A DNA stretch of 64,000 nucleotides from NCBI GenBank assembly GCA_030612725.1, contig JAUWNJ010000009.1:33800-97799 (forward strand), in the 5' to 3' direction. A program made the translations under genes and the position numbers. Within the stretch, counting starts at the first letter, position 1, and the number at the start of each line of letters is the position of its first letter. Below the pieces are notes generated by a model, which did no database searches, had not been told where the DNA came from, and was given only the letters and a program-made list of their open reading frames with translations. The DNA comes from Planctomycetales bacterium (lineage in GTDB: Bacteria; Planctomycetota; Phycisphaerae; SM23-33). Positions 18,574 through 35,839 of the stretch are shown here, piece after piece.

Positions 18574-18620
18574 TAATATGTTTTCGGGAGTTTTTTCGGG
18601 AACTTGAATGGAGGCTGCGA

Positions 18621-20162
18621 ATGTTGGAGCGACTTTTTAATACGCATCAGATAGCCAACCTGCTCGGTACTAATGAAGCAGCGGTTGACGATTGGATAAA
18701 AAGGGGTTGGTTGCCCGTCAGGGATATGCCCGGCGAGCAGGTCCGCATTTCCGAAAAAGGGCTGGTGCAATTCCTCAAGAACAGGGGTATCGATTTGGAA
18801 GCGATTATAACCAACGTCGCTCCCAATGATGCTCAAGAACCGTTACCCGAAACGGTTTCGCCCGAAGAACCGCTTTCGCCTCCGTCTGAAGAATCACCCC
18901 GCACGGAACGTCCCCAGGTTGCGCCTGCGCCCCAAACCGACAGGGTTCCGCCCGATGAGATCGTTGAAGAGACAGGACATATCGAATCTCATCAGGCCGA
19001 TCCCGCCGCTCAGGTGGCTGACGCCCTGCTCCGGGACGCTGCCGTAAAGCGGGTAAGCCACATTCATCTGGACTCCTGCCGGGACGAACTGTCGCTGCGT
19101 GTGCGAATCGACGGCCTACTGCACGACAAGCCCAATTTCAAGTCGCGTCTTCCCAAAGGTCTTGGCCCACGTTTAGTGGCGCATTTAAAAAACCTTGCAG
19201 GCCTGGAGGTCGGCGAAGTCGTCGCCCCCCAAACCGGCTCTTTCCGTCTTGACATCAATGGGACGCAGGAGGATTTTCGCCTTGCGACTCATCCGACTCT
19301 GCATGGCGAAAGACTGGTGATTCACGTTCGGCTGCGCGGGCAGGACACCCCAATGCTGGATGGCATCGGTCTGGGGGAAGATGATCTCTCGTCGTTGCGG
19401 GCAATGCTGGCTGAACCGTGCGGACTTATACTGGTGGCAGGACTACCCGGAAGCGGGCCGGCGACGACGCTGCGGGCAATGCTCGCAGAAGTCGATACCG
19501 CACGACGGGATGTCGTCGCACTGGAAACGCGAAGCCAATTCCCGCTCGAAGGCATAAGCCGATACCGCATCGACCGCGAGAAAGGCGATACCGTTGCCGA
19601 TACCCTGCGATCGCTTTGCAATCAGGATGTTGATGTAATCCTGGCTGACGACATTACGGAGCGTTCTGCTGCTACCGGTGCAGTCGAAGCCGCCGTTGCC
19701 GGCCGGCTGGTGCTGGCGGGAGTATTCGCCAGAAATTCCGCCGTTGCGATGGAGATGCTTCTGGAATCCGCCAAGCCATGGACGCTGGCGTCGGCTTTGC
19801 TGACGGTAATCAATCTGCGAACCGTACGCAAAATCTGCCCGAAGTGCAGGCAGGAAGCCAAACCCCCAGACAATCTGTCGCTGGATTTCCCCGTCTATCG
19901 CGGAGCCGGTTGCGACGAATGTTCGCAAACCGGATATGCCGGCAGGACCGGGCTGTTTTCGCTGCTTCGGGTTGACGAGATTATCGCGGCGATACTGCGA
20001 AACAACGACAATGCCGGACAAATCATATTTGCCGCCGAACAGGCCGGTATAAAAACGCTCCACCAGGCGGGCCTGGAAAAAGTCCGCGACGGAATAACCT
20101 CGCTCGAAGAACTATCGCGGATTCTCCCGCAATTCCCCGGAAGCGAAAGAAAGGCAAAATAA
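18621..20162 (+). CDS. HTH + GspE/PilB-family ATPase domain with degenerate catalytic motifs
   Basis: N-terminal excisionase-like HTH (FNTHQIANLLG...WIKRGWL); SHIH...RVRIDGLL, PQTG, CPKC...GCDECSQTGYAGR, GITSLEE; Walker A reads GLPGSGPATT. Confidence 0.85.
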   Translation: MLERLFNTHQIANLLGTNEAAVDDWIKRGWLPVRDMPGEQVRISEKGLVQFLKNRGIDLEAIITNVAPNDAQEPLPETVSPEEPLSPPSEESPRTERPQVAPAPQTDRVPPDEIVEETGHIESHQADPAAQVADALLRDAAVKRVSHIHLDSCRDELSLRVRIDGLLHDKPNFKSRLPKGLGPRLVAHLKNLAGLEVGEVVAPQTGSFRLDINGTQEDFRLATHPTLHGERLVIHVRLRGQDTPMLDGIGLGEDDLSSLRAMLAEPCGLILVAGLPGSGPATTLRAMLAEVDTARRDVVALETRSQFPLEGISRYRIDREKGDTVADTLRSLCNQDVDVILADDITERSAATGAVEAAVAGRLVLAGVFARNSAVAMEMLLESAKPWTLASALLTVINLRTVRKICPKCRQEAKPPDNLSLDFPVYRGAGCDECSQTGYAGRTGLFSLLRVDEIIAAILRNNDNAGQIIFAAEQAGIKTLHQAGLEKVRDGITSLEELSRILPQFPGSERKAK

Positions 20163-20164
20163 TA

Positions 20165-20212
20165 GTATTATGTCCCCGGATTTTATGTCCCCGGATTTTG
20201 TCCCCGGAATTT
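20165..20212. repeat. Triplicated TGTCCCCGGA motif
   Basis: TATGTCCCCGGATTT x2 plus TGTCCCCGGAATTT; reverse complement occurs at 22084-22103. Confidence 0.85.
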
Positions 20213-20326
20213 CATTACAACTTTGGTATGATATTTTACTTGGGCAACCCTTGTTATCCTTTGGGAATATACGATAGGATCACACATCTTTGACAGGTTC
20301 GGCTTCACAAAAGGAACATCCGGTTT

Positions 20327-21313
20327 ATGCGAGAAGACTGGAACAACATCATCTGTATTGACCACTGGGATCCGGATGAGTCCTCCTACGAGAGCGGCTT
20401 GTACCCGGAGGGCAGCCGGGAAAAAGCGGTCTACTTCTCCCCGGCCGATGTGAAACCGTTGCCGTTGAAGCCCAAGTGGCGTTACCTGTTCAAGAAATCC
20501 AGGGCTTGGGCGCCGTGGCAGTTCTGGATGGAAATCATGGCCTACCGGATTGGTCAAATTATGGGTGTTCAGGTTCCCCCTGCTTATGTTGGACTAAGCA
20601 AAAAAGAATCGCCGGGACAAGAAACCTACGGAGCGTTGATAGAATGGTTCTATTCTGAAGATGAACTATACATCGAAGGTTCGCGCCTCATATCCCCGCT
20701 CATACCAGGATTTGACCATAAGACTGGTAAACAGCATAACTTAAGAACAATCCTGAATCATCTACTCAAAAAACCTTCTGATTCAAACAAGATTTTCCGT
20801 AAGATGCTGGAGCACTGGGCCAAGGTCTTGGCATTTGATACCATAATAGGAAATACGGATCGCCATCCGGAAAACTGGGGCATCATTATCCCACGTAAAC
20901 CATCCGGCAAGACCATCCCAGTGAGACTTTCTCCCGCATTTGACAACGGGACGGCAATGTCCTATGAGCAACCCGAAGAACATTTTGCGAGATTCGACAA
21001 TGAGCAATACGCTACCCGATATTTAACCCACCCCCAAAAAGCAAGACATCACATGAGATGGAGTCTTGACGACTGCGGAAATATGAATTTCTTCGATTTT
21101 ATGTGTAGATTCGTTTCGGAGTATCCAAAAACGAAGGCGTCCATTGTACGGATGCTCCAATTTACGTACGACGACCTTCGCGATTGCCTCGAACCTTTAA
21201 CGGATATTGTTATTGACGAAAGGTCTCGTTTGACAAAACCGCGGCTGGATTTTACACTAAAGCTTATTATGAGACGAACAACATTGCTCAGAGAAGCGAT
21301 GGGAAAAATATGA
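20327..21313 (+). CDS. HipA/CtkA-like Ser/Thr kinase
   Basis: GSREK loop, YLFK, EIMAYRIG, catalytic DTIIGNTDRHPENWG, RLSPAFDNG. Confidence 0.88.
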   Translation: MREDWNNIICIDHWDPDESSYESGLYPEGSREKAVYFSPADVKPLPLKPKWRYLFKKSRAWAPWQFWMEIMAYRIGQIMGVQVPPAYVGLSKKESPGQETYGALIEWFYSEDELYIEGSRLISPLIPGFDHKTGKQHNLRTILNHLLKKPSDSNKIFRKMLEHWAKVLAFDTIIGNTDRHPENWGIIIPRKPSGKTIPVRLSPAFDNGTAMSYEQPEEHFARFDNEQYATRYLTHPQKARHHMRWSLDDCGNMNFFDFMCRFVSEYPKTKASIVRMLQFTYDDLRDCLEPLTDIVIDERSRLTKPRLDFTLKLIMRRTTLLREAMGKI

Positions 21314-22038
21314 AGTATATCGAACACATCATAGAACCGACAAGGCTTCTGTTGTCTTGGCAATCCCCCAGCAGTTCCAGTCGGGGACGCTATATCGTCG
21401 CAGAACTGCTTCGTAATGGGGATGATGCCGACTTGGTATACCTGAGCGACAGTCAGGACTACATCAAGGCCAAGGAGAAGGGATTCACCGGTGAATATGG
21501 CGGATATCCGGGATTCCCTGCAATAAACAAGGAACATTCGGGAGTCCTTGCCGCTTTCATAAAGCGACTGCCCCCTCGCTACCGGACTGATTTTGAGAAG
21601 TTCATGGACGCTATCAGGATTCGGCCAGGTACAGATATCTCGGATTTTGCACTTCTGGGATACGCTGGTGCCAGGCTGCCTGGTGATGACTTTTATATCA
21701 TTCATCCCTTCGACAAGGCCCGGCCTCCATTTGAATTACTTCTTCTGGTAGCAGGATATAGGTACTATCGCGATAACGTGCCATACGAAGCATTGAAGAT
21801 TGGAATGGCTGCGAAATTCGAGGCTGAGCCGAGTAATCCACATGACAAAAATGCCATCAGAATTGTAATACCGGAAGTTGCTGATCAAACCGCTGGATAT
21901 GTCTGCCGTGGATTGCTACCTCAATTTCAGCGTTGGCTGGATGCGGGCTGGGATATAGAAGGAACGATTGAGCGGCGAAACGGGGTAAATGATCACCCGA
22001 TCGTTTATCTTTTTGTCAAAATCCGTAAGCCAACTTAA
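21310..22038 (+). CDS. HIRAN-domain protein coupled to the kinase
   Basis: ATGA overlap with kinase stop; C-terminal VAGYRYY...EPSNPHDKNAIRI...GYV HIRAN pattern. Confidence 0.8.
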   Translation: MKYIEHIIEPTRLLLSWQSPSSSSRGRYIVAELLRNGDDADLVYLSDSQDYIKAKEKGFTGEYGGYPGFPAINKEHSGVLAAFIKRLPPRYRTDFEKFMDAIRIRPGTDISDFALLGYAGARLPGDDFYIIHPFDKARPPFELLLLVAGYRYYRDNVPYEALKIGMAAKFEAEPSNPHDKNAIRIVIPEVADQTAGYVCRGLLPQFQRWLDAGWDIEGTIERRNGVNDHPIVYLFVKIRKPT

Positions 22039-22163
22039 CTGCTTCTATTGCTTGGTACTTTCATAGCTTGGTGCCGGATACCAGGAATTCCGGGGACACA
22101 ATATGATTGTTATTGACGTTTGTGTGCGCAAGTTGGTCATATTCCGGAATTCCCCCCTTAATC

Positions 22164-22197
22164 GGAAGAATCTTCCTGGTTGACGGAAGAATCTTCC
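22164..22197. promoter_or_regulatory. Tandem palindromic operator, candidate enhancer for a sigma54 activator
   Basis: GGAAGAATCTTCC at 22164-22176 and 22185-22197, 21-bp period, upstream of the sigma54 promoter. Confidence 0.55.
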
Positions 22198-22308: not shown

Positions 22309-22324
22309 TGGCACGCACGTTGCT
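22309..22324 (+). promoter_or_regulatory. sigma54 -24/-12 promoter of the flagellar operon
   Basis: TGGCAC-GCACG-TTGCT, exact consensus, ~40 bp upstream of fliK. Confidence 0.8.
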
Positions 22325-22365: not shown

Positions 22366-23961
22366 ATGAACGTAGCACTGAATAATCTGATAATGCCGGC
22401 ATCGGCAGCAGCGCCTTCGGGAGAGGTTTCATCAAAGTCGAAACACTCCGCCTCAGGCCAAGCCGATAAAACCGCAAACTCCGAAGCAAAGCCTGCACAG
22501 GCCGACAAACCTGCCAAGAAGTCTGCGAATTCCAAAGACGCCCCGGACGCCACTAAAAAGAGCAAGGTTCACACCGGTCCGAAAACCTCCGACGGAAAGG
22601 CCTCCAAACTCAAAAAGGGCGAGAAGGTCGTCGTTGCAGCGGTTTCAGGTCCGAAGGTTTTTTCAGAGATTATTCAATCCGCGAAGGCGTCGGGTAATTT
22701 TCGTCAGGTCGATAGTGGCGAATCGACGGCAGAAGTCCTTACTAAAAAGGACGCCGGGAATCCCGATATTGTGTTCGCGGGCAAGACCCATGCTGTAAAG
22801 GGCGACGCTGATTCATTACAGGTTCGGGCATCCATACTCGGCAAGACACAGGTCGCCCAAGCCACAAATAAGCCCGTCCCGGAAGGTCAGGCAGTGGCTA
22901 CGTCCGAGGTTGTCGGGAAAACCGTTGTCGGGAATCCCGTTGGCAAAGACTCCATTGGCGAAAATGCCGTTGGCGAGATGCCTCTCAATACCGAGCCGGC
23001 TGCGTTACACCGCGAGCCTATCAAGATCACCGAGGCTTTGGCCGATGCGGTTTCGCCTGATACCGGTGCGGAAATCGCGGGGAAATCGCAGATGGGGCTT
23101 GAGGCTCCGGAGGTGAATCAGCAGGTATTGACATCGCCGGCTGGGCCTGTCCTGCCGGCGTTGGTAGAGGGAATGAAGCAGGTTTCCGACGCGACACGCA
23201 TACCGGCCCCTGTGGCAGGTGAAAAAAATACCCAGACCGCTTCTTCCGCTACCGGGCGGAAAGTGCTTTCAACGGCAGGGCTTACGCCAAATAAATCGGC
23301 CGAGGGTGCCGATGGAACGGACGCGGGGATTAAAATCGACACCTTACTGCAAGGTTCTGGCGATCCCGTTGCTGCCGTTGGTCAGACGCAGACAGGGCAT
23401 GGCGAAACCTCGCAGGAAGTCATGCAGCATCTCGGTGCTACCGCCGAGCCGGTTCGCGTTGATACAGTAGATACGCCGACGGTTTCTTCGGAAAACTCGT
23501 TGCCGGCACCGGCAGCGAATCAGGTCGTCGAAGCGTTGCGAGCAAGTGCATCCCGCCAGGGTAATCAGGTCGTAATCCATCTGAATCCTCCGGAATTGGG
23601 GAAAGTCAGCATAAGACTGAGCGTTACCGGAAATGATGTTCGTGGCGTGCTGCGAGTGGAAAACCCCCAGACGCTCACTCAACTTCAGCGAGAGGCCCCC
23701 GCCCTTCTGAACCGATTGGCCGAAGCGGGCGTGCAATTGAGGCAAATGGACTTGTCGCTGAGTGAACAGGGGTCGGGCGATTCATCGCTTTACTCGCAAC
23801 TGCATGACGAGAGCGGCCTGTGGGGTCAGAACAATCAGGGCGAAAATTCGCAGCCGACCGCGAGTGAATTACTTTCAGATGAGCATGTTTTGGTCGGCGT
23901 TGAAGAGACAGGGCGGGAAGTAACCACGCTCGCAGATGACGCGATTAATGTCTGGATTTAG
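22366..23961 (+). CDS. fliK: Flagellar hook-length control protein
   Basis: Low-complexity N-region; C-terminal IHLNPPELGKVSI; directly upstream of flgD. Confidence 0.9.
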   Translation: MNVALNNLIMPASAAAPSGEVSSKSKHSASGQADKTANSEAKPAQADKPAKKSANSKDAPDATKKSKVHTGPKTSDGKASKLKKGEKVVVAAVSGPKVFSEIIQSAKASGNFRQVDSGESTAEVLTKKDAGNPDIVFAGKTHAVKGDADSLQVRASILGKTQVAQATNKPVPEGQAVATSEVVGKTVVGNPVGKDSIGENAVGEMPLNTEPAALHREPIKITEALADAVSPDTGAEIAGKSQMGLEAPEVNQQVLTSPAGPVLPALVEGMKQVSDATRIPAPVAGEKNTQTASSATGRKVLSTAGLTPNKSAEGADGTDAGIKIDTLLQGSGDPVAAVGQTQTGHGETSQEVMQHLGATAEPVRVDTVDTPTVSSENSLPAPAANQVVEALRASASRQGNQVVIHLNPPELGKVSIRLSVTGNDVRGVLRVENPQTLTQLQREAPALLNRLAEAGVQLRQMDLSLSEQGSGDSSLYSQLHDESGLWGQNNQGENSQPTASELLSDEHVLVGVEETGREVTTLADDAINVWI

Positions 23962-23970
23962 GAGAATATC

Positions 23971-24375
23971 ATGAGCGCTATATCAGGAATAACCAGCAGC
24001 GCTGAAAGCATTCAGGTCGATTATCTGAACCTGCTGATGGCACAGTTGCAGAACCAGAATCCGCTGGAACCGATGAGCAGCACAGATATGACTTCCCAGT
24101 TGGCGCAGATTTCGCAGCTGGAGCGCCTGGAGAGCATCGACAAGCAGATGTCGTCTCTGGAGAACATCGACAGCAGGTTCCAGCAGGCGATGCTGACAGC
24201 CGAACTCAACGAAGCGACGGCGCTAATCGGAAAGACGGTTTCCTTCTTTCCTGCCAATTCGGCCATCGCCGTTTCCGGTAAGGTTGACGGCGTGAACATT
24301 GTCGATGGGGCCGCCCTGCTGAACGTGGGCGAATACAACGTCAAAGTGGACGACATTATGTCCATCAGCGAATAA
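23971..24375 (+). CDS. flgD: Flagellar hook capping protein
   Basis: YLNLLMAQLQNQNPLEPM...QLAQISQLE, ALIGKTV. Confidence 0.93.
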   Translation: MSAISGITSSAESIQVDYLNLLMAQLQNQNPLEPMSSTDMTSQLAQISQLERLESIDKQMSSLENIDSRFQQAMLTAELNEATALIGKTVSFFPANSAIAVSGKVDGVNIVDGAALLNVGEYNVKVDDIMSISE

Positions 24376-24414
24376 AACGAAAAATTCAGAAACTCTTTCG
24401 ATAAAGGATAAATC

Positions 24415-26076
24415 ATGGGTAATGCACTATTAGCGGGCGTTTCGGGTCTGAAGGCACACCAGACGATGCTTGACGTAACGGGCAACAACCTTGCCAACCT
24501 CAATACATACGGATTTAAGGGCAGCAGGACCGTTTTCGCCGATATGCTCAGCAGTACGCTGCGAGAAGGTACCGAGCCGACCGAGAATACCGGTGGAACC
24601 AACCCGATCCAGGTCGGAAGCGGAACGCAGGTCGCCAGCGTGGACAGGATTATGACGCAGGGTGGTCTGGTTACGACGGGTCAGCCGCTGGATATGGCCA
24701 TTGAGGGCGAGGGATATTTCGTCCTGAACAACGGTCAAACCGACGCCTTTACGCGTGTCGGTTCCTTCGCGGTCGATTCGGGTTACTACCTGGTCGATCC
24801 CGGAACGGGTTATCGCGTACAGCGTTTCGGTACCGAAGGCGAGACAGAGGGGTTCCAGACAAACGACAGCATCAAAATTCCTTACGACGTTACACTCGAA
24901 GCCCAGGCAACTGAGAATATCAACGTTTCGGGCAACCTGAACGGAAACGCATCAAGTCCGACCACCAACGTGTTAGGCAGCAGGTTGCAGTACACTGCAG
25001 GAGAAATGGTTACAGAGACTACGCTTCTGGCGGACTTGAACGAGACCAGCGGTCTTGTCGATGGCGATGAAATTCAGATTACCGGTACCGATTGCGACGG
25101 TGATGCCGTCAACGCCACATATATAATTGCCGACGCGACTACGGCGACAGTGGGGGACCTGCTGACGGCGATTTCCGCTGCGTTCACCGGTTCCACAGCG
25201 TCCATCTTCAGCGGCGAAATTCGCATGACCGATGATGCCGCCGGTTACAGTCAGACGGACATGATGCTGGAATTCACCGGTACCGGCGGCGGTGTCCCGA
25301 CCGGGACATTCACAATGCCCGAGTATTTCCAGATTCTTGAGGCGGGTGGTGAGGCTACGCAGGATGTCAGCATCGAAATTTTCGACTCGCAAGGTATCGG
25401 TCATATCCTCGGCGCCTCGTTTGTCAGCAACGTCGCCGGTGATTGGGATCTCGTTATCACCTCTATAGCCGGTGAAGTCGATAATCTGAACGACAGGCGG
25501 ATCAGCGGAATAACATTCCAGGAAACCGGTAACTACGGCGGTATCGTAGGTACGCCCCCGGACGATCCGACATTCAGCATAACCTTCAGTAACGCTCCCG
25601 ATACGGTGCGAGTGATTGAAGTGGACTTTGGGTTGGTAGGCGGGCGACAGATTACTGTCTCCGGTGAAGAGGTCGGTCTCGCAACCGTCTCAATGGATGA
25701 CCAGGACGGATATACGTCGGGACAGTTGGCCAGTATGTCGGTTACACAGGAAGGTATCCTTGCAGGACTGTTCACCAACGGCGTTACCCAGAATATCGCA
25801 TCGATTAAAATGGCGGTCTTCCAGAACCCTGCCGGTCTTGCAGCCTTGGGTAATAGCTACTTCGCAGCCTCCGGAAACTCCGGCGACCCCCTCTACACCA
25901 GAGGCATGAGCGGCGGGGCCGGAACCATCCGGGGCGGATCGCTGGAACAGTCAAACGTGGACGTCGCCGGCGAATTCGTCAACCTCATCCAGGCACAGAA
26001 CGGATACCAGGCAAACGCAAGGACAATCAAAGTCGCCAACGAAATGTTGAAGGAACTGGCAAACCTGATCCGCTAA
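24415..26076 (+). CDS. flgE: Flagellar hook protein
   Basis: GVSGL...GNNLANLNTYGFK, LDMAIEGEGYF, LEQSNVDVAGEFVNLIQAQNGYQANAR. Confidence 0.93.
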   Translation: MGNALLAGVSGLKAHQTMLDVTGNNLANLNTYGFKGSRTVFADMLSSTLREGTEPTENTGGTNPIQVGSGTQVASVDRIMTQGGLVTTGQPLDMAIEGEGYFVLNNGQTDAFTRVGSFAVDSGYYLVDPGTGYRVQRFGTEGETEGFQTNDSIKIPYDVTLEAQATENINVSGNLNGNASSPTTNVLGSRLQYTAGEMVTETTLLADLNETSGLVDGDEIQITGTDCDGDAVNATYIIADATTATVGDLLTAISAAFTGSTASIFSGEIRMTDDAAGYSQTDMMLEFTGTGGGVPTGTFTMPEYFQILEAGGEATQDVSIEIFDSQGIGHILGASFVSNVAGDWDLVITSIAGEVDNLNDRRISGITFQETGNYGGIVGTPPDDPTFSITFSNAPDTVRVIEVDFGLVGGRQITVSGEEVGLATVSMDDQDGYTSGQLASMSVTQEGILAGLFTNGVTQNIASIKMAVFQNPAGLAALGNSYFAASGNSGDPLYTRGMSGGAGTIRGGSLEQSNVDVAGEFVNLIQAQNGYQANARTIKVANEMLKELANLIR

Positions 26077-26094
26077 CCGAACGGGTAATAACCA

Positions 26095-27255
26095 ATGCAC
26101 GGATGCTTATCCATAATGGCTTACTTCGGACCGATTCTGAGTGAGGTCTCCCCGGTTGACCGTTGGGACGGCGTGCGGAGTTTCACGTCGTCGGCCGACA
26201 AATCGTCGGGATTGGTATGGTGGGTGTTGGTGATTCTTGCTCTTGCCCTTTCGACAGTGGTTGTAATCGCCGCTGTCTGGAAGTACGGGCGGATGCGTCG
26301 AAAGGTGGCTGGGTTCCGTCGCGCCGGCGACCAGGCCGGTCTTAGAACCGAAGAAATAAAACTGCTTATGCACATCGCCAAACTTTCGGGCGTGAAGGAC
26401 ATCACCACTATATTCAACGCTGACGGGGCGTTTAATCACGGCCTTGACCGTTTGATGCACAGCGCCAGGGTCGCGGCAATGTCCGAAACTATGTGCGCGA
26501 ACCTCAACACCATGCTGGGGGCGTTACGAGAGAAACTCGGCTTCGAGCAAATCATGGACGATGGTACGAAGGCTATCAGTTCAAGCCGGCAGATTGCCCT
26601 CGGAAGCAGTGTTTTCATTACACTTCCGGGAGGCGACGGTCCGGTCGAAGCCACTATCGTAAGCACCGGAGATTCGGATTTTCTCGTCGAGTCCGATGAA
26701 CCTCTGGTCGGACACTTCGGTCAGGTCTGGGTCGTGCGTTGCCCCGTCGGATCAACCGCGTGGGAATTCGACGCGACTGTGATTCGCAGCGACATCGACG
26801 GAATAACGCTGAGGCATTCGTCCGATATTCGAATAATAAACCTCCGACGATTTCCCCGTATTGCGACGAACAAACCGGCCCAGGTTGCCATGTTTCCGTT
26901 CAGTGAGGATACGCCCGATCTTCAGTCGCCTCATTTTGTCCCGGCGGTTGTCGTCGAAATCGGCGGGTCGGGACTGCTGATAGAGATGCCCATGCAGGCG
27001 CACATCAACGAAAAAACAATCGTCATAGTGAAAATCGACAACAGACGCCAGGTCCAGGGCGTCGGGAAGGTCCGACGGGCCTTCACCGACGAAAATGGAA
27101 ACGAAATGGTGGCGATAGAACTGGTCGGATTGAACTCGGACGAACTGGCGGAACTGGTCAGCGAAACCAACATTGCAGCAAATCAGCGTAAGACCAAAGT
27201 CGCCGAAACCGGTGAAACGTCGGCTTGGTTACCCGAAGAAAAAGGACACAAATGA
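26095..27255 (+). CDS. Membrane-anchored YcgR/PilZ-like flagellar protein
   Basis: N-terminal TM; PilZ-like LRRFPRI (RxxxR-type) and EIGGSG (D/NxSxxG variant). Confidence 0.65.
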   Translation: MHGCLSIMAYFGPILSEVSPVDRWDGVRSFTSSADKSSGLVWWVLVILALALSTVVVIAAVWKYGRMRRKVAGFRRAGDQAGLRTEEIKLLMHIAKLSGVKDITTIFNADGAFNHGLDRLMHSARVAAMSETMCANLNTMLGALREKLGFEQIMDDGTKAISSSRQIALGSSVFITLPGGDGPVEATIVSTGDSDFLVESDEPLVGHFGQVWVVRCPVGSTAWEFDATVIRSDIDGITLRHSSDIRIINLRRFPRIATNKPAQVAMFPFSEDTPDLQSPHFVPAVVVEIGGSGLLIEMPMQAHINEKTIVIVKIDNRRQVQGVGKVRRAFTDENGNEMVAIELVGLNSDELAELVSETNIAANQRKTKVAETGETSAWLPEEKGHK

Positions 27256-27974
27256 ACGGTTCGATACAAGCGGCAGGTTCGAGCATGGACGCCCTGGGAA
27301 AGTGTTACCGGGTCATTACCCATAATCTCGCCAATGCCAACACCGTAGGATACAAACGACGAGCCGAGTCGATAAGGCAATCGCTTGCCGGTCAGACGAC
27401 GGGCGAAACCGGCGGTGAGGTTACCAGCCGGCCTTTTATTGATTTTTCACAGGGAAGACTGATTCACACAGGAAGGGCGCTGGACGTAGCCTTGGGCGGA
27501 AAGAACGCCTTTTTCGTCATTGAGACGCCCAAAGGTCAGATGTACACGCGTAACGGCGTTTTTCGCCTGAACGACCAGGGGCAGATGGTGGACTCAAGCG
27601 GGCAGAGCGTTGCCGGGCAGAGCGGTCCGCTTACCGTTCCGGCAAATGTCGGACCGGACGCAGTGAGCATCTCTTCCGACGGGCGGATTTCCGCAAACGG
27701 ACAGTCCCTCGGACAGTTCAAAATCGTTCAGTTCGACAAACCCGAACTGTTAGTGCCGATTGGGAAAAATCGTTTCAGCGCACCGAAATCCGCCGCTCCG
27801 AAACAGACGGAAAAACCCGGCGTTCACCAAAGGTTCCAGGAAGGTTCAAACGTGAGCGTCGTCAAGGAACTTGTTGATTTGATTACTGTAACCAGGCTTT
27901 ACGAAGCCAACGCAAAAAGCATCAAGGCCCACGACGAACGGATGAAAAATATCCTGCAAGTTGCAATGGGCTGA
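27252..27974 (+). CDS. flgF: Flagellar basal-body rod protein FlgF
   Basis: HNLANANTVGYK, DFSQG, YTRNGVF, EGSNVSVVKELV; precedes flgG. Confidence 0.88.
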   Translation: MNGSIQAAGSSMDALGKCYRVITHNLANANTVGYKRRAESIRQSLAGQTTGETGGEVTSRPFIDFSQGRLIHTGRALDVALGGKNAFFVIETPKGQMYTRNGVFRLNDQGQMVDSSGQSVAGQSGPLTVPANVGPDAVSISSDGRISANGQSLGQFKIVQFDKPELLVPIGKNRFSAPKSAAPKQTEKPGVHQRFQEGSNVSVVKELVDLITVTRLYEANAKSIKAHDERMKNILQVAMG

Positions 27975-27992
27975 TTATTTGAGGAGACAGGT

Positions 27993-28775
27993 ATGTTAAG
28001 GGCATTTTCAACGGCTGCAACGGGAATGACGGCTCAGCAGATGATCGTTGACGTCATTGCCAACAACCTTGCCAACATCAACACCGTTGGGTTCAAGCGG
28101 AGCCAGGTCGATTTTCAGGACTTGATGTATGTGAAGATTAAAGAGTTTGGGCGTGAGATTGCTTCGGGCGTAACGGCGCCGGGCGGATTCGAGATAGGAA
28201 GCGGCGTAAGTCCCGCCTCCACGCTGAAGGTCTTCACACAAGGCGAGCAGGTCAACACCGAGCGGAGCCTCGATATAGCCATTCAGGGCGACGGGTTCTT
28301 CCAGGTAACAGGCCCCGGTGGCGATACCCGTTACACGCGCGACGGATCGCTCAGGGCAAACGCCAACGGCGAATTGGTAACTTCCGGCGGATACACTATG
28401 GAACCGGCAATCAGCATCCCGCCCAGTACCGTCTCGATAAGTGTCGGCAAGGATGGGACCGTTACGGTTTTCGACGGTACGACCACCACGTCGATCGGGC
28501 AGATTACGCTGGTGCGATTTGCGAATCCTTCAGGACTGTCGAGCGAGGGCGGGAACCTTTTGGCTGAAACATCGGCCAGTGGTTCGCCGACCACAGCCAC
28601 GCCCGGACAGGACGGAGCCGGGACGCTCCAGCAGGGATTCCTCGAAAAATCAAACGTTCAGATGGTTACTGAACTGGTCAACCTCATAACGGCCCAGCGA
28701 GCTTATGAAATCAACTCGCGGGCGATCAAAGCCGGCGACGAGATGCTCACCACCGCAAATCGTCTGATCGCATAG
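27993..28775 (+). CDS. flgG: Flagellar basal-body rod protein FlgG
   Basis: TAATGMTAQQ...NNLANINTVGFK...FQDLMY, LEKSNVQMVTELVNLITAQRAYEINS. Confidence 0.95.
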   Translation: MLRAFSTAATGMTAQQMIVDVIANNLANINTVGFKRSQVDFQDLMYVKIKEFGREIASGVTAPGGFEIGSGVSPASTLKVFTQGEQVNTERSLDIAIQGDGFFQVTGPGGDTRYTRDGSLRANANGELVTSGGYTMEPAISIPPSTVSISVGKDGTVTVFDGTTTTSIGQITLVRFANPSGLSSEGGNLLAETSASGSPTTATPGQDGAGTLQQGFLEKSNVQMVTELVNLITAQRAYEINSRAIKAGDEMLTTANRLIA

Positions 28776-28783
28776 GAGACGCA

Positions 28784-29770
28784 ATGATACGTAAATCAGC
28801 CAGTATTCTGCTTGGAGTATTGTTGCTTTGTGCGGTATGTCCGGCTTCGCCGAAGAAAGCCCCGGCTCTGCGGATGCACCTTCCGAGGACGGTGCGTGTA
28901 CGCGGCGAGTCGCTGAACATGGGGCGAATCGGCGTAATTCGCGGAAGCGACGCGAAACTCTGCAAAAAAGTTTCGGATATCAAAATGGGCAGACTGCCGT
29001 TCTCCGGCGAAAAAATCACCATCGACCGACGAACAATACTCTCCCGTCTCGCTACCGCCGGTATTGGCCCGAGGATGATTCAGATTACCGGGGCCCGGAA
29101 AGTCGTCGTCATGCTCGACGAAAAGACCTTCGAATCAGCCAGGCTGATTAAGTCGGCTGAGGCGTTCCTGACCAGGACCCGTCCGGGTCCGGATGGGTGT
29201 TCATGGAAACTCGTCCGTCAGCCAAAAGACCTGAAAGTTACGTCCGCCGATAACATTCAACTCAAGCCTCGCCTCGGCAAGGCGAAGTCCAAAAGGTACA
29301 TAGAAGTTATAGTCGCAGCCGTCGGTTCGAAAAAACGTGAACTTGGACGGGCGAAAATACTCTTCAAGCCGGTCTATCGCGTTCAACAGGCAGTCGCGAT
29401 TAAAAACATCACTTCGGGCGAGACGTTCACGAAGACGAACACCGTCGTCAGGATCGTCAGCGTCGAACGCAAACCAACCCGCGAGTGGACAAGTCCCTTT
29501 GGACTGATGGCGTCGCGCGACATACGGGTCGGCGCGGTTATTCGCCCCGGACTCATGAAGACGCCGAAACCCGCTCTTGTTATCCGCCGCAACCAGACCG
29601 TCCAGATGAAGATTGTCGGGCTTGGGTTCGTGATATCGGGTGTCGGTAAAGCCATGTCTAACGGACGGGTAGGCGAATTGATTAAGGTCCGAAACACCGA
29701 CAGCAAGCGAATTATTACAGCCAGGGTGGCCTTCGACGGTACCGTCAGGCCGATTTATGGAAAGAGGTAA
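28784..29770 (+). CDS. flgA: Flagellar P-ring chaperone
   Basis: Signal peptide, SAF-like C-terminus GKAMSNGRVGELIKVRNTDSKR; between flgG and flgH. Confidence 0.88.
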   Translation: MIRKSASILLGVLLLCAVCPASPKKAPALRMHLPRTVRVRGESLNMGRIGVIRGSDAKLCKKVSDIKMGRLPFSGEKITIDRRTILSRLATAGIGPRMIQITGARKVVVMLDEKTFESARLIKSAEAFLTRTRPGPDGCSWKLVRQPKDLKVTSADNIQLKPRLGKAKSKRYIEVIVAAVGSKKRELGRAKILFKPVYRVQQAVAIKNITSGETFTKTNTVVRIVSVERKPTREWTSPFGLMASRDIRVGAVIRPGLMKTPKPALVIRRNQTVQMKIVGLGFVISGVGKAMSNGRVGELIKVRNTDSKRIITARVAFDGTVRPIYGKR

Positions 29771-29774
29771 AATT

Positions 29775-30407
29775 ATGAAGATTACACGTTTAATTACCAC
29801 GGCGGTTTTCTCGATTCTGCTTTTGACGGGCGTTGCATGGGCGGGTTCCATCTGGGCCAAGGCGAAGTCGCCCAAACCATTACACGCCGACGATACAGCC
29901 AGCAGGATCGGGGACATCCTGACGATTGTTATCGACGAGCGAACCACAATCGACAATAAGTCCGAGCGGAACCTGGAGAAGAAGTCCTCCCGCAAGACCG
30001 GCGTCAAGACAAACGTGCCTTTGATGAGTGCAATCAACACCGCTACGGGCGGGATGTTCAAACTTACAAAAGCGGATGTGGACATGAGCGCCGAGAACAA
30101 GTTCGACGGAAAGGCAGACTACGGTAACGAGCGGAAGATGATCGACCAGATAACCGTTACAGTCGCCGACGTGCTTCCGAACGGGAACCTGGTTGTCGTC
30201 GGTACGAGGGAGCGCAAGGTCGATGACGACAAGCAGGTTATCCAGATCAGCGGCGTGGTCCGTACCAGCGATATTACCTTCGCCAACACGGTTCGCAGCG
30301 ACAAAGTGGCTGAATTCAAGATTACTTTCAAGGACGGTTATCGCGAAAAACGCTTCACCAAACCGGGCTGGTTCGGGCGAGTTCTCAATCTGCTGAACCC
30401 GTTCTAA
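29775..30407 (+). CDS. flgH: Flagellar L-ring protein
   Basis: IGDILTIVIDE, VADVLPNGNLVVVG, SGVVRTSDI, PGWF. Confidence 0.9.
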   Translation: MKITRLITTAVFSILLLTGVAWAGSIWAKAKSPKPLHADDTASRIGDILTIVIDERTTIDNKSERNLEKKSSRKTGVKTNVPLMSAINTATGGMFKLTKADVDMSAENKFDGKADYGNERKMIDQITVTVADVLPNGNLVVVGTRERKVDDDKQVIQISGVVRTSDITFANTVRSDKVAEFKITFKDGYREKRFTKPGWFGRVLNLLNPF

Positions 30408-30433
30408 TCGGGCCTGATGGAAGGAATAGACTT

Positions 30434-31525
30434 ATGCGACGCATTCTAACGGGAATAGTTATCATGCTGCTTCTGTTCGCCCTGCCTACGCGGGCAGAGC
30501 GGATAAAGGACATCGTCGATATTCAGGGCGTCCGAAGCAACCCGCTGCTTGGTTACGGGTTGGTGGTCGGGCTTAACGGTACGGGCGACGATTCGCCTGC
30601 CTCCCAGCGGGCGCTGGCGAGCATACTACGAAAGTCAGGCCTGGTCCTGGAGCCGAAGGACGTCTCCAGCAAGAACATTGCCAGCGTGATAGTAACGGCG
30701 GAACTTCTGCCGTTCGCACGCAAGGGAAGCAGGATGACCGTAACGGTTTCGGCAATTGGCGATACGACCAGCCTCCAGGGCGGAACGCTTCTGATGACGC
30801 CCCTTATGGGTGCCGACAAGCAGGTTTATGCCGTCGCGCAGGGTGCGATATTAGTCAGTGGGTTCGCTGCCACCGGACAGTCGGCTTCCGTGGCGAAAAA
30901 TCATCCTACTGTCGGGCTTATCCCCGGCGGGGCGACTGTGGAAGCAGAAGAACTCGCCGAGTTCGTCGAGAACGGGTTCGTTACGCTGAACCTTCGTAAC
31001 CCGGACTTCACCACGTCCGAAAAAATAGCCCAAGCCATTAATTCGATCTTCAGGAACAGTTCAAACGCCGTCGATGCCGGTACGATTAAAGTCGAAGTTC
31101 CCAAAACGCTGACTCGCGGCGAACTGACCGGATTTATCGATAAAATCTCCGCGCTCAACGTCAAAGTCGATCAGCCTGCACTGGTGGTCATAAACGAGCG
31201 GTCCGGTACGATTATCGTCGGGGAAAACGTCGGTATCTCGACGGTGGCCATCTCGCACGGAAACCTGACAATCGTTACACAGGAAAAGGATTTCGTCTCC
31301 CAGCCGCTGCCGTTCTCCAAAACCGGCACGACGGAAACAATGAACCGGACCGACATAACGGCCAAGGAGGAGGCAGGCGCTCTGCATGTGGTTCCGCGTC
31401 AGGTGTCCGTTTCCGAACTGGCAAGGGCGCTCAACGCGATGGGGCTTACGCCGAGAGACCTGATATCCATTTTCGAGGCATTGCGCCAGGCAGGAGCACT
31501 CCAGGCGAAACTGAAAATTATGTAA
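30434..31525 (+). CDS. flgI: Flagellar P-ring protein
   Basis: RIKDIVDIQGVRSNPLLGYGLVVGLNGTGD, SLQGGTLLMTPL, INERSGTI. Confidence 0.95.
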   Translation: MRRILTGIVIMLLLFALPTRAERIKDIVDIQGVRSNPLLGYGLVVGLNGTGDDSPASQRALASILRKSGLVLEPKDVSSKNIASVIVTAELLPFARKGSRMTVTVSAIGDTTSLQGGTLLMTPLMGADKQVYAVAQGAILVSGFAATGQSASVAKNHPTVGLIPGGATVEAEELAEFVENGFVTLNLRNPDFTTSEKIAQAINSIFRNSSNAVDAGTIKVEVPKTLTRGELTGFIDKISALNVKVDQPALVVINERSGTIIVGENVGISTVAISHGNLTIVTQEKDFVSQPLPFSKTGTTETMNRTDITAKEEAGALHVVPRQVSVSELARALNAMGLTPRDLISIFEALRQAGALQAKLKIM

Positions 31526-31534
31526 GGGAACATC

Positions 31535-31894
31535 ATGAGCGATTTGTCTCTTCCGATAAACCCGGTTGATTTATCCACTGCGATGCCGCTTGCAGCGGGA
31601 AGTGCGGATTTAGCGAAAAGTCTGGACGGGTTGAAGAATAACATTGATGTAAAGAAAGCTGAAAAGGTAGCCAAGGATTTTGAATCCGTGCTGCTGCACA
31701 AACTTATGGAAAGCATGCAGCGTACGATTCCCGAATCAGGACTGCTGGACAGCGGAATTACAAAGCAGGTCCAGGGCATATTCTGGTTTTACCTTGCCCA
31801 GGAAATGGCCGACGCGGGCGGTGTCGGTCTGTGGCGGGATATTTACTCTCAGATGACCGACCATGCGACGCAGGCGGTGGAGCAAAGCGAATGA
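31535..31894 (+). CDS. flgJ: FlgJ rod-binding domain only, no muramidase
   Basis: VAKDFESVLL...M, GGVGL; follows flgI. Confidence 0.82.
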   Translation: MSDLSLPINPVDLSTAMPLAAGSADLAKSLDGLKNNIDVKKAEKVAKDFESVLLHKLMESMQRTIPESGLLDSGITKQVQGIFWFYLAQEMADAGGVGLWRDIYSQMTDHATQAVEQSE

Positions 31895-32406
31895 TTGTGC
31901 GAAGCACTGAATCGTTGATTGATGAACTCCTGGCGGTCCTCGACGAGGAGATCGAACTGCTGGGGCAGAAGCAGTCGCAACTGGCGGACCTTTCCGAAGC
32001 GTTGGTATCGACCGACGATGCAGCCACCGAGACTCTGATCAAACTAATTGAGCAGACGGAATATACGCAAACCAGGGTCGATCTGAAACTCCAGGACGTT
32101 CGCAAGACCCTTGCCGGCGTATTCGGATACGACGACGCCAGGGCGTTGCGGCTTTCCGTGCTGGTAACGGAACTACCCGACGCGCAGGCGACGGCGGTGA
32201 ATGACCGTCGGGAGCGATTGGCCCAACAGGTCGGCACCCTTCGCAGGCAGCACCTTCAGACAGCCATGCTTTTGATCGAATGTTCCAAAGTTAATCGCAT
32301 GATGATGGAGTGTTTGTTACCGGCGGGCGAAGCCGTTACGACATACGACGCGACAGGGACGAACCTCTGGCGGAACGGCGTCGGGCTGGTGGATAAGGAA
32401 CTATAA
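31891..32406 (+). CDS. flgN: Flagellar export chaperone FlgN-like
   Basis: Helical protein between flgJ and flgK; C-terminal TYDATG. Confidence 0.7.
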   Translation: MIVRSTESLIDELLAVLDEEIELLGQKQSQLADLSEALVSTDDAATETLIKLIEQTEYTQTRVDLKLQDVRKTLAGVFGYDDARALRLSVLVTELPDAQATAVNDRRERLAQQVGTLRRQHLQTAMLLIECSKVNRMMMECLLPAGEAVTTYDATGTNLWRNGVGLVDKEL

Positions 32407-32410
32407 TCGA

Positions 32411-34369
32411 ATGTTAAATTTCTCGATAAGCCTCACCGGACTGAACGTCGTTCAAAGCGCCATCGAATTGGTCGGCACCAATCTGTCCAATGCCGGTAGC
32501 GAAGGATACCATCGCCAGGACCCGATTATACGCCCGTTGTGTTTGAACACCTACGGTGTCGTTTCCATCGGCGGAGCCGAAATTACAGAAGTTCGGCGAA
32601 TGATCGACAACCTGCTGGAAATGGAGATCGTGCGTCAACAATCGTCGCTTGGGCAAGCGTCGCAGGAGTTGGCTACCCTGGAAACGATTGAGAGCGTCTT
32701 CGGCGAGTTGGATTCCGAGGGCATGAACGTGGCAATAAGCCACTTCTTCGACTCGCTGACTGAACTTACTTCCCAGCCTGACAGTCAGGCGCTGCGCGAG
32801 CAGGTGGTATGGGCGGCTGACGGTCTGGCCGGTCAGTTCCGCAATATCGGGCGCTTCATTGATGACGTGATGGAACATGTTCACCTCCAGGCCAGGCAGT
32901 ACGTCGAGGAAGTCAACTCGCTTTCGAATGAAATATCCGACCTGAACCAACAGATTACCGCGGTTTCCCTGCGTGGCGGTTCGGCCAACATGCTAAAGGA
33001 TCGTCGAGACCAGGCAATTAAGGAATTGGCGGACCTGATAAATATCGAAGTTACCGGCGGGGTCGGTCTTGCCGAAACGACAACCATTTCCGCAAACGGA
33101 ATGCAGGTTGTAACGGGCACGTCCGTCATGACACTGGAACTTCAAACCACATCGGATGGGAAATTGGGAATCGCGCCGGAAGGTTCGCCGACGTGCAATA
33201 CCAGCCTCAGCGGCGGCAGACTGGCCGGCTTACTTGCACTGAATAACGACATACTCGCCGATATTCGAAGCAGCATGGATACATTGGCCGGACAGATTAT
33301 TACCGAAGTCAACCAACTGCACGTCCAGGGCGTGGGCAAAAACGGTTCGTTTGACGACCTGACAGGGGTATCCGTTTCGTCGGAAACTCTGGATGAATGG
33401 TCGCTCGATGTGGGAGCGGGAAGTTTCTTCATCCGCGTGATCGACACGAACACAGGCATCGCAACACGCCACGAAATCGCGGTCGATCCGACCACCGATA
33501 CTATCGCGACCATCCAGGCCGACCTTGACGCACTTGGAAATATATCGGCGTCGATTGTCGGTTCCGCTCTGCACATCGAAGCCAACGCCGGGTATCAGTT
33601 CGATTTCCTGCCGGCTGTTTCGGCCCAACCACTGGCCGATAACATCACCGGCACCGCCGAGGCAACAATGTCGGGAATATACGAAGGCGACGAAAACCAG
33701 GTGTTTACCTGTACGGTGGCCGGCGACGGCGACGTCGGCGTCGATTCAGGACTTGTGCTGGAAGTCCGTAACGGAGCCGGCGAACTGGTCAAAACGGTCA
33801 ATGTCGGACAGGGATATGCCGCCGGCGATGTGTTCGACATCGGTAGCGGGATGTATGTCGCCATTAGTACCGGATCGTTAGTCGATACCGACAATTTCAC
33901 TATCCAGGCTTTGGCCAGAACGGACACATCCGGATTCCTTGCCGCAGCGGGGATTAACACGCTGTTCTCAGGTGACACCGCGGCCAATATAGCGGTTCGT
34001 GGGGAGATTCTTGAGAGTCCTCAGGATCTGGCCGGTGATGTCAGCGCAGCCGGTGGCGACGGGATCAACATTCGGGAAATGGCGGATATTGTCCGGCAGA
34101 CCTTCGCCGCTCTGGGAGACACCTCCCCGCAGGACTATTACGGGCAGATCGTCGCCGGCGTCGGTCAGACCATCGCCGTCAGGCAGGCGAGAGTTGCCAG
34201 TATGGAAAATATCATGAGGCAACTGGGTACTCAGAGAGAGGACATCAGCGGCGTGGACCTCAACGACGAAGCCGCAAAATTGATAGTCCTTGAACGAATG
34301 TATCAGGCGATATCGAAGTCCATATCCACGCAGAACCAGATGTTGCAGTTCCTTTTCGACATAATATAA
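32411..34369 (+). CDS. flgK: Hook-associated protein 1
   Basis: NLSNAGSEGYHRQ, LKDRRDQ, SGGRLAGLL, SGVDLNDEAAKL. Confidence 0.93.
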   Translation: MLNFSISLTGLNVVQSAIELVGTNLSNAGSEGYHRQDPIIRPLCLNTYGVVSIGGAEITEVRRMIDNLLEMEIVRQQSSLGQASQELATLETIESVFGELDSEGMNVAISHFFDSLTELTSQPDSQALREQVVWAADGLAGQFRNIGRFIDDVMEHVHLQARQYVEEVNSLSNEISDLNQQITAVSLRGGSANMLKDRRDQAIKELADLINIEVTGGVGLAETTTISANGMQVVTGTSVMTLELQTTSDGKLGIAPEGSPTCNTSLSGGRLAGLLALNNDILADIRSSMDTLAGQIITEVNQLHVQGVGKNGSFDDLTGVSVSSETLDEWSLDVGAGSFFIRVIDTNTGIATRHEIAVDPTTDTIATIQADLDALGNISASIVGSALHIEANAGYQFDFLPAVSAQPLADNITGTAEATMSGIYEGDENQVFTCTVAGDGDVGVDSGLVLEVRNGAGELVKTVNVGQGYAAGDVFDIGSGMYVAISTGSLVDTDNFTIQALARTDTSGFLAAAGINTLFSGDTAANIAVRGEILESPQDLAGDVSAAGGDGINIREMADIVRQTFAALGDTSPQDYYGQIVAGVGQTIAVRQARVASMENIMRQLGTQREDISGVDLNDEAAKLIVLERMYQAISKSISTQNQMLQFLFDII

Positions 34370-34396
34370 GGCTTACGGCGATTGTGAGGTGATTTA

Positions 34397-35839
34397 ATGA
34401 GCGGTTGGGGAACGATTTACAATAACATGATGTACGGGCTTGAGAATCACTCGCAGACGCTGGCGCGCCTGCAGGAGCAGATTGCTTCCGGTTCAAGGGT
34501 AATTCGGGCGTCAGACGATCCGAGCAACGCGTTTCAGATAATGGACATCAAGTCCCAGACGCGGACGCTGGAAGTGTACTCCGAAAACCTCGACCGGATC
34601 GTACTGTCGCTGAAGCAGACCTATTCCGTGATACAGGAGTTGTCCAGTTCGTTGTCCGGTGAGGATGGGGCCCGGGGGAAACTTACGCAGGCTGCCAGCG
34701 GGACTTACACCGACTCGCAACGTTCGGGACTGGCGGTGTATTTTGACACACTCCTGGGCCATGCCATTTCACTGGCGAACAGGAAGGTTCTGGGGCAATA
34801 CGTCTTCGGCGGCGACGCCTCAGATGCATCGGTGCCTTACGTCGCTCAGTACGAGGATGGCAAAATCGTCTCGGTTACCTACGAAGGAGGCCTGCGGAGT
34901 ATCAGCGTTCCAGTGGCCTCCGGCGTGGAACAGTCCGCTACGCTTGTCGGCGAAGAAGTCTTCCGCTCCGACCGGCGAACCGAACCGATATTTTACGGCG
35001 ACACCGGCGCTGCAGCAGGGGCCGGCACTTCGACCGTAAGAGGCGACGCCTGGCTGACCGTAGTGCATGATACGACAACCTACGGCGGAGCCACAGGCGT
35101 CCTCGCCGGAAGCAGGTCGGACGATGAAGACACCATCGTCGGAATGTCTCATAAACTCACGCTCGATGCCGACACAGGAAGGATCAGACTCGATGGCGGA
35201 CAGTTTGTGGACTACACGGGCGCTGAAGATAACCTGGAACTCACGAATGTCGCAGGCGACGTGGTCTTTGTCGATATGAGAAGCCTCGCAGGCGGACTGT
35301 CCGGGATGATAGACGTTACAATCACCGCCACCGGAAAAATGTCCATCGACGACCTCGAAAGCACCGCCGATCTAACGGCGTTTACCGATAACGAAGCTGT
35401 TATAGATTCCGTCACCGGCCGGGTACTTTACGTTGACGCCACAGGTATTGAGCGGACCGGCGTCGAACCGGTGCGGGTCCCCGGAACTTACGACTTGTTC
35501 GGAATGCTCATCGGCGCACGCGATGCTCTTCTCAATGAGCGGGGACTTTCGGAGGCCGATCAGACGGAACTTATTGGCGAGGCGATCGAGTCGCTCAACG
35601 AGGTCTTGGGCGGTCTGACCGACAATATGACCGCCGTCGGGGGGCGCAGCCAGGCGATGGATACGCTCAAAATGACATTGGTGAATATACAGGGCGATCT
35701 GGATATACGCCGGTCAACACTCCAGGACGCCGATATCATCGAACTTGCAGCCGAACTTGCAAGAACCCAGACATTCTACGAAATGACACTGGCGGTTACG
35801 GCCAGAGTGCTGAGCCTGTCGCTACTGGATTACCTCTAA
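34397..35839 (+). CDS. flgL: Hook-associated protein 3
   Basis: LQEQIASGSRVIRASDDP, GQYVFGG, C-terminal SLLDYL. Confidence 0.93.
   Translation: MSGWGTIYNNMMYGLENHSQTLARLQEQIASGSRVIRASDDPSNAFQIMDIKSQTRTLEVYSENLDRIVLSLKQTYSVIQELSSSLSGEDGARGKLTQAASGTYTDSQRSGLAVYFDTLLGHAISLANRKVLGQYVFGGDASDASVPYVAQYEDGKIVSVTYEGGLRSISVPVASGVEQSATLVGEEVFRSDRRTEPIFYGDTGAAAGAGTSTVRGDAWLTVVHDTTTYGGATGVLAGSRSDDEDTIVGMSHKLTLDADTGRIRLDGGQFVDYTGAEDNLELTNVAGDVVFVDMRSLAGGLSGMIDVTITATGKMSIDDLESTADLTAFTDNEAVIDSVTGRVLYVDATGIERTGVEPVRVPGTYDLFGMLIGARDALLNERGLSEADQTELIGEAIESLNEVLGGLTDNMTAVGGRSQAMDTLKMTLVNIQGDLDIRRSTLQDADIIELAAELARTQTFYEMTLAVTARVLSLSLLDYL

Follow-up and report, generated by a model that had tools for sequence, protein, structure and literature searches.

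We analysed a 64,000-nt window of contig JAUWNJ010000009.1 (assembly GCA_030612725.1, positions 33,800 to 97,799), from a Planctomycetales bacterium of the Phycisphaerae. An uninterrupted open reading frame (ORF) on the forward strand of this window (18621..20162) starts with ATG and encodes a 513-aa protein, P0001, in which a helix-turn-helix (HTH) domain is joined through a linker to a core related to PilB and GspE, the motor ATPases of type IV pili as well as of type II secretion systems (T2SS). A Shine-Dalgarno-like GGAGG can be read directly on the same strand 9 nt ahead of the ATG (18607..18611), and most of 20 orthologue loci have a GGAGG-like site at the equivalent position ahead of their HTH start. 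Around the gene, simple scans for promoters and terminators yielded nothing above shuffles. Four parts can be distinguished in the protein: a winged HTH of the MerR/excisionase (HTH_17) type, delimited by profile and predicted fold (residues 1-66; 18621..18818); a disordered Pro/Glu-rich linker, delimited by composition and model confidence (pLDDT) (residues 67-125; 18819..18995); an N2D-like domain of the PilB/GspE core (residues 126-250; 18996..19370); and the CTD, a RecA-like ATPase domain that appears inactive (residues 251-513; 19371..20159). The latter two domains were delimited using Pfam, the model and structure matches.

The relationship of the core to PilB and GspE is clear from both sequence and predicted structure. 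The Pfam T2SSE family (PF00437) matches residues 125-500 (E 3.4e-61, 207 bits), and a phmmer search of PDB sequences recovered GspE at 7e-57. The AlphaFold2 model, which was built on an 18-member family alignment, has a pLDDT of 81.4, and its N2D and CTD share the fold of the PilF, PilB and GspE structures (Foldseek E 3e-39 to 1e-35, TM by target ~0.8), with 28-31% identity over ~385 residues. P0001 also has the tetracysteine Zn motif and the C-terminal GITSLEE-type helix of these enzymes. The NCBIfam equivalogs scored 265 bits for GspE (cut-off 630) and 241 bits for PilB (cut-off 676). The N1D/MshEN docking domain of the canonical enzymes (PF05157, PF22341) has no Pfam match in P0001 and its place is taken by HTH_17; the AAA+ sigma-54 interaction domain (PF00158) is likewise without a match. 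The source genome (G000; 3.16 Mb in 65 contigs, 96% complete) contains 14 T2SSE matches, five of which are full-length GspE/PilB-like genes scoring 432-464 bits.

Alignment with these five canonical paralogues shows that every catalytic motif of P0001 is altered in its homologous column. The paralogues read GPTGSGK[TS]TT, EDP[VI]E, VGEIRD and GH[LM]V..TLHT. In P0001, Walker A is GLPGSGPATT (19440..19469), with Pro replacing Lys, the Asp box is ETRSQ (19524..19538), the Walker B/catalytic Glu region is DVILADDITE in place of D[VI][IV]M[VI]GEIRD (19632..19661), and the His box is GRLVLAGVFA (19701..19730), with both histidines gone. The tetracysteine motif, CPKC...CDEC (19836..19922), is retained, all four Cys being kept in the alignment with the paralogues, and Zn binding is predicted from it. 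The original prediction, a note made from the sequence of this window, had described this combination of changed motifs, intact frame and fold, and preserved tetracysteine, and the comparison with the paralogues bears it out.

The same losses extend across a family of homologues. A word-indexed search returned relatives at 34-72% identity with a matching layout, two of them labelled Phycisphaerae. We then searched an 18-member profile against 1.84 billion cluster representatives (clusters at 50% identity) and analysed the best 150 matches, in 116 of which the HTH was aligned. Among these 116 family representatives the Walker A Lys column holds Arg in 54, Lys in 11 and other residues in 51; the remaining 34 of the best 150, which lack the HTH, are mostly canonical (K in 30). 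The ED of the Asp box survives in three of the 116 and the two His-box histidines in seven and six, while all four Cys are present in 112 and the complete catalytic set in none. In a comparison of 117 family members with 67 canonical enzymes, 41 positions conserved to 80% or more in the latter are lost across the family, including N2D D147, D205 and R235, the whole P-loop with the Walker A Thr/Ser, the Asp box, R334, G343/E344 of Walker B (lost in most members), T360, H362, H369 and E447. The N2D arginines are among the positions lost family-wide. Common to both groups are R162, H149, D336, D338, R403 and the four Cys, and positions W387, R460, Q131, A135 and D139 are specific to the family. 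The core is thus a PilB/GspE fold that is kept with its catalytic apparatus wholly lost, and P0001 is, judged by its sequence and those of its relatives, a pseudoenzyme whose catalytic residues have been lost throughout an orthologous clade under purifying selection.

The pattern of residues in the P-loop bears on whether the pocket might still bind a ligand. Its commonest form in the family is PPRSGR.TT, so that the glycine-rich loop is partly kept and the Lys column is often occupied by another basic residue. A remodelled loop of this kind could in principle still bind ATP, c-di-GMP or (p)ppGpp and so control DNA binding; c-di-GMP controls the flagellar regulator FleQ. However, P0001 and its closest relative (G001) have Pro at the Lys position (GSGPATT), and the losses extend to the Walker A Thr/Ser, the Asp box, the N2D arginines and the His box. 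The pocket is therefore without a common constraint across the family. We regard a ligand-sensing switch as distinctly unlikely.

The N-terminal domain was identified by profile and by predicted fold. HTH_17 matches residues 7-55 of P0001 at E 2.2e-4 (21.9 bits, under the curated 27) and TIGR01764 (excise) reaches 17 bits where the cut-off is 28.8; among the 18 family members, HTH_17 matches 15 at E <= 0.01, with a best value of 2.4e-8. A profile of 14 N-terminal domains, searched against PDB sequences, matched a cobalamin-binding protein (8jbs, E 1e-4), the Pukovnik excisionase (Xis gp37, 4j2n, 2e-3) and BldC (6ama, 4e-3). The domain was modelled with a pLDDT of 78 in the order strand-helix-turn-helix-wing-helix, and its Foldseek matches were led by the MerR-type NmlR (5d90), BldC (TM by target 0.78, rmsd 1.5 A), SoxR, gpNu1, RacA, Cox, Xis and RdfS. 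Basic residues are conserved at R4, K/R28, R35, R42, K53 and R55. On its profile matches and model, we take this domain to belong with the winged HTHs of the MerR/Xis type, a DNA-binding kind, and DNA binding is the function that the same evidence would predict for it. Residues 66-124, which follow it, are modelled with pLDDT below 50; across 115 family members the linker has a median length of 105 aa (range 17-442) and contains 18% D+E and 17% P. An excisionase- or MerR-like HTH tied to a pseudo-ATPase by a Pro/Glu linker had been proposed from the sequence, together with the caveat that the N-terminus might prove to be something other than an HTH; both profile and fold favour the HTH.

To place the family among its relatives, a maximum-likelihood tree was constructed from 77 sequences using core columns only. 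All 31 members with the HTH fell into one clade (SH-aLRT 99), apart from all canonical enzymes, in an alignment that was fitted to the family's own profile and could favour such a split. The clade also takes in two degenerate sequences without an aligned HTH, P0143 and P0179; the match of P0143 to the family profile starts only at position 95. One Armatimonadota-labelled protein, P0035, combines an HTH_17 head with intact T2SSE motifs, and it was placed among the canonical enzymes, so its HTH fusion is independent. A degenerate-pattern scan for the HTH subtype of the family, over one genome for each of 185,579 species, gave 16 real loci, all in metagenome-assembled genomes labelled Planctomycetota, Planctomycetales or Phycisphaerae. 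At all 16 the HTH is fused to a T2SSE-like core whose readable motifs are degenerate; 13 frames are complete enough for all six motifs to be read and three are cut or truncated. In the ESM Atlas, three HTH_17+T2SSE clusters were found, all commonest in Planctomycetota and carrying automatic names only. From these sequence comparisons, the HTH-pseudo-PilB/GspE proteins are best classified as one monophyletic family with a fixed architecture.

Members were counted within the order with a profile of the HTH alone (E <= 1e-16, at least positions 1-59 covered, open frames of ~450-780 aa). Of 99 genomes examined, 57 proved to be carriers, several of them with two copies. All carriers belong to the taxonomic family of the source organism (56 of 91 besides G000), and the sister family has none in seven genomes. 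A stricter full-length profile, cut at E <= 1e-112, recovered the family in 30 of 99 genomes and overlooked about half of its members; the HTH-only count takes its place. Among the 150 matches listed for 301 genomes of the phylum, where four candidates were scored per genome and active paralogues filled the list, none besides that of G000 starts before query position 85. Many genomes of the order also encode a small protein (~190-220 aa; for example at G002:C111:11171-11317) whose N-terminus matches the family HTH profile over positions 7-55 at E ~1e-10, a value cleanly separated from those of the family. From its sequence, this protein could be a stand-alone relative or the donor of the fused head.

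Other PilB/GspE relatives came to light in these searches. G000 encodes a second degenerate paralogue of 573 aa (contig C53, locus L008 9-4146), which resembles P0001 in having lost its catalytic motifs while keeping the fold but has no HTH and lies outside the HTH clade on the tree. It has a putative hydrophobic stretch near its N-terminus and sits between a gene for a PilT-like ATPase and a gene with a Colicin_V (CvpA) match (E 1.3e-5, below the cut-off). Thirteen proteins of ~1000 aa among the best 150 (P0063, P0068, P0070 and others) match the core profile in two stretches, mostly with canonical motifs where aligned, and may be tandem-domain PilB/GspE fusions.

Selection on the family was estimated from pairwise dN/dS. 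Against the congener G002 (76% amino acid identity) the whole gene gave 0.39, with 0.18 for the HTH, 0.57 for the linker, 0.33 for N2D and 0.41 for the CTD; against a second congener, G005, the whole gene gave 0.26 and the HTH 0.15. The linker has the highest value in both comparisons (0.45-0.57). Two fragments from a third congener, G001, gave 0.32 and 0.35, and the HTH value against one of them, 0.56, comes from a fragment that is 92% identical, with very few changes counted. For comparison, the active paralogue gave 0.115 and 0.084 in the G002 and G005 pairs, and the flagellar genes FlgE and FliK gave 0.17 and 0.405 against G002. By these estimates, P0001 is constrained, about three times less than the active paralogue, and its HTH is the most constrained part in the G002 and G005 comparisons.

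These values also bear on the concern that the gene is a decaying duplicate of a PilB/GspE gene without a function of its own. In favour of decay, the dN/dS of 0.39 measured against G002 is 3.4 times what the active paralogue shows in that comparison, and the family has long branches on the tree. On the other side, dN/dS stays far under 1, with the HTH giving the lowest values in the G002 and G005 comparisons, frames are intact in nearly all copies, and the four Cys persist in almost every representative of a monophyletic family with a fixed architecture that occupies 57 of the 99 genomes and 116 of the best 150 clusters. The original prediction had called for an architecture search to see whether degeneracy is conserved under purifying selection, and had allowed that homologues might retain GKT while this copy decayed; degeneracy proved to be conserved in this way across a large family, and no homologue in it that carries the HTH keeps the full catalytic set. 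The results already contradict decay, which we judge to have a negligible chance of being correct.

On one side the P0001 gene is flanked by a divergent gene for an HPP-family membrane protein, and on the other by a HipA_C-like kinase gene and a HIRAN gene, beyond which a flagellar operon begins. An ORF and Pfam scan reads this operon as fliK-flgD-flgE-(386-aa ORF)-flgF-G-A-H-I-N-K-L (22366..35839, forward strand). As had been noted from the sequence, pilus genes are not adjacent: a scan of 24 ORFs between 7962 and 37466 found no pilus or T2SS gene, and none turned up in the neighbouring ORFs that were scanned at the loci of 25 relatives. This absence is relevant to the idea that P0001 is a non-catalytic subunit or inhibitor of a type IV pilus or T2SS machine, its dead core docking on PilC/PilM (GspF/GspL) or mixing into active PilB/GspE rings and its head being a protein-docking module that replaces N1D/MshEN rather than a DNA-binding domain. 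Such a role would fit a core that has kept its fold, its Zn-binding subdomain and several structural residues; the five canonical paralogues in G000 are available as partners, and P0035, which is catalytically intact, shows that an HTH_17 head can sit on a working motor. It fits poorly with the lack of pilus and T2SS neighbours and with a head that is the most conserved part of the protein and whose nearest relatives in sequence and fold are all DNA binders, and the fusion in P0035 arose independently. We consider this docking role unlikely, though plausible.

The flagellar operon is the recurrent neighbour of the family. The family gene lies directly upstream of fliK and is co-oriented with it in G002, G382 and G363, as it is in the window apart from an insert. 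In G370 the two genes are divergent; in G364, G392, G381 and G008 the family gene lies 4-10 kb past flgL, and in G035 it is 14 kb from fliK. Counting that of the window, six genomes have the family gene either immediately upstream of the operon or divergent from it. By coordinates alone it lies 5-10 kb from flgI in G394, G396, G397 and G371. Altogether, 14 genomes have the family gene within 25 kb of flgI, among 46 carriers that have FlgI. Carriers of the family also have FlgI more often than non-carriers do, 46 of 57 against 21 of 42 (naive Fisher p 0.002). CheB is found on the far side of the family gene in G370 and G363. Two genomes of the source genus, G003 and G004, are without both the family gene and FlgI. 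Among non-flagellar genes, a conserved neighbour was sought and none is family-wide: HPP adjoins the gene only in G002, G005 and G382, transketolase lies downstream of it in G023 and G031, and in G379 and G020 the adjoining gene is glutamate-synthase-like. Of the contextual clues to function, the strongest is this recurrent linkage with the hook and rod operon of the flagellum, which the original prediction missed.

The fliK gene is preceded by a sigma-54-type promoter, TGGCACGCACGTTGC (22309..22323, forward strand), with a TGGCAC-N5-TTGC box 57 nt before the fliK ATG. About 130 nt upstream of this box are two tandem palindromes, GGAAGAATCTTCC, placed 21 bp apart (22164..22197). The arrangement of promoter and tandem GGAAGAATCTTCC is kept across several genera of the source Phycisphaerae family.

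Taken together, these observations lead us to favour a regulatory role. P0001 would be a non-catalytic descendant of PilB/GspE in which a winged HTH of the MerR/excisionase type, carried on a long tether that is acidic and disordered, has taken the place of the N-terminal docking domain. The dead motor core would serve as an oligomerisation scaffold, a signal-receiving scaffold or both, and the tethered HTH heads would bind DNA, making P0001 a transcription or nucleoid-binding regulator whose main targets may be motility genes. We put forward, as our leading explanation, a DNA-binding regulator for which a dead motor provides the oligomerising or signal-receiving body and whose action is mainly on motility genes, but only tentatively, with confidence a little short of even. 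The original prediction had suggested co-assembly of the repurposed pseudo-ATPase with PilB/GspE hexamers, linking them to DNA binding; mixed rings of this kind may form. More speculatively, the core may have kept an ability to dock on a pilus or secretion platform and thereby tie flagellar gene expression to the state of the pili. In the most specific form of this idea, the core of a dead pilus-motor ring would dock on the type IV pilus or T2SS platform and read the state of the machine, and six HTH heads would be released to, or withheld from, the promoters of the flagellar hook and basal body. We regard this as a long shot; if true, it would amount to a direct physical switch between pili and flagella in the Phycisphaerae.

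Several observations weigh against a motility regulator. The co-occurrence with FlgI is uncorrected for relatedness. Of the 57 carriers, 11 lack FlgI, and one genus of five genomes accounts for four of them; the four carriers queried for FlgG as well gave no match. The role therefore cannot be purely flagellar. No flagellar gene was found among the neighbouring ORFs scanned in G023, G036, G024, G031, G360, G404, G376, G366, G379 and G020. Part of the flagellar linkage may be inherited gene order, because an inositol-phosphate synthase gene lies near the family gene both in the window and in G023. Across the family the HTH has a mean net charge of +1.2, only a mildly basic value, and its Foldseek matches, with TM by target of up to 0.85, reach E 4e-3 at best, which is weak, though in line with a domain of 68 residues. 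A DNA target of the HTH was sought and none was found. The GGAAGAATCTTCC palindromes at 22164-22197 were tried as its binding site and rejected, as they are present in non-carriers too, although the samples are small: the tandem palindrome lies upstream of fliK in nine of 14 carriers and also in two of eight non-carriers, and at least one exact palindrome in ten of 14 carriers and also in four of eight non-carriers. The palindromes lie where sigma-54 activators bind, and G000 has eight canonical sigma-54 activators. A gene for a response regulator/sigma-54 activator is divergent from fliK in one carrier (G407) and one non-carrier (G378). Given this gene and the occurrence in non-carriers, the palindromes are likely an upstream activating sequence, that is, a site for an enhancer-binding protein.

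The kinase and HIRAN genes that separate P0001 from the fliK promoter belong to a strain-specific, low-GC insert of ~2 kb (20125..22158, forward strand), delimited from GC content, Pfam matches and the contigs of relatives. The HipA_C-like kinase (20327-21313) and the HIRAN protein (21310-22038) were identified with Pfam. GC content is 0.477 in the bin 20001-22000 and 0.53-0.56 in neighbouring bins. The insert is absent from G002, in which the fliK upstream region begins no more than 10 nt past the stop codon of the family gene, and contigs of relatives from three public runs in two studies join 20124 straight to 22159. It is flanked by GTCCCCGGAWTT, of which three direct copies lie at 20172-20211 and a single inverted one at 22086-22097. 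The left end of the insert, not the ancestral gene, encodes the last ~12 residues of P0001.

Two other features of the locus were recorded. The 386-aa ORF between flgE and flgF (26095-27255) has no Pfam match and is an uncharacterised gene of the flagellar operon; a BLAST comparison found a counterpart in the matching place in all six relatives' loci that cover it (30-83% identity). A perfect inverted repeat of ~34 bp, forming a hairpin, lies at 17971-18054, flanked by the GH130 and HPP genes, which are convergent. The summed contig depth of this hairpin-arm bin in four metagenome runs is ~5-45x that of flanking bins and many contigs end there, which suggests that it is a multi-copy REP-like element.

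The architecture of P0001 differs from those of the known systems that it most resembles. Its head is predicted to share the beta-helix-turn-helix-wing-helix topology of BldC (6ama), NmlR (5d90), SoxR, Pukovnik Xis (4j2n), P2 Cox, RacA and lambda gpNu1, but these are small DNA binders, either stand-alone or linked to effector domains, and none is carried on a secretion-ATPase core. Flagellar regulators of the FleQ/FlrA/FlbD type also combine a ring-forming P-loop NTPase with an HTH and are encoded beside flagellar genes; their NTPase is an AAA+ sigma-54-interaction domain and their HTH is C-terminal and of the Fis type. P0001 likewise joins a domain derived from a P-loop NTPase to an HTH near a sigma-54-promoted flagellar operon with tandem palindromes. 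However, its core is PilT/GspE-like and dead, its HTH is N-terminal and PF00158 is missing. P0001 is accordingly unlike these activators, and from its motifs it is predicted to be incapable of remodelling the sigma-54 holoenzyme by ATP hydrolysis.

There is a precedent for regulatory output from the PilB family beside motor work. Myxococcus xanthus PilB is reported to act as a signalling protein for exopolysaccharide production (PMC5544727); unlike P0001, it is an active motor without a DNA-binding domain. In full-text searches of the literature, no account came up of a PilB/GspE regulator that is dead or fused to an HTH, and term look-ups in the 2024 PilB review (PMC11656802) returned no passage on one. 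The original prediction had likewise known of no described system with this architecture, and the family is apparently undescribed.

The finding matters first for annotation. Members of the family are named 'GspE/PulE family protein', 'TadA' or 'type II secretory ATPase GspE/PulE...' in databases, and these names imply working ATPases, inflating the counts of pilus and secretion systems in Planctomycetota. The family also adds a large, testable case to the growing list of PilB/GspE-derived pseudo-ATPases. To our knowledge, the control of flagellar genes in Planctomycetota has not been worked out, and our literature search likewise turned up no account of it. If the regulatory role that we favour is correct, the family would represent a bacterial regulator of a new type, one derived from a secretion motor, and would provide a first handle on flagellar gene control in this phylum.

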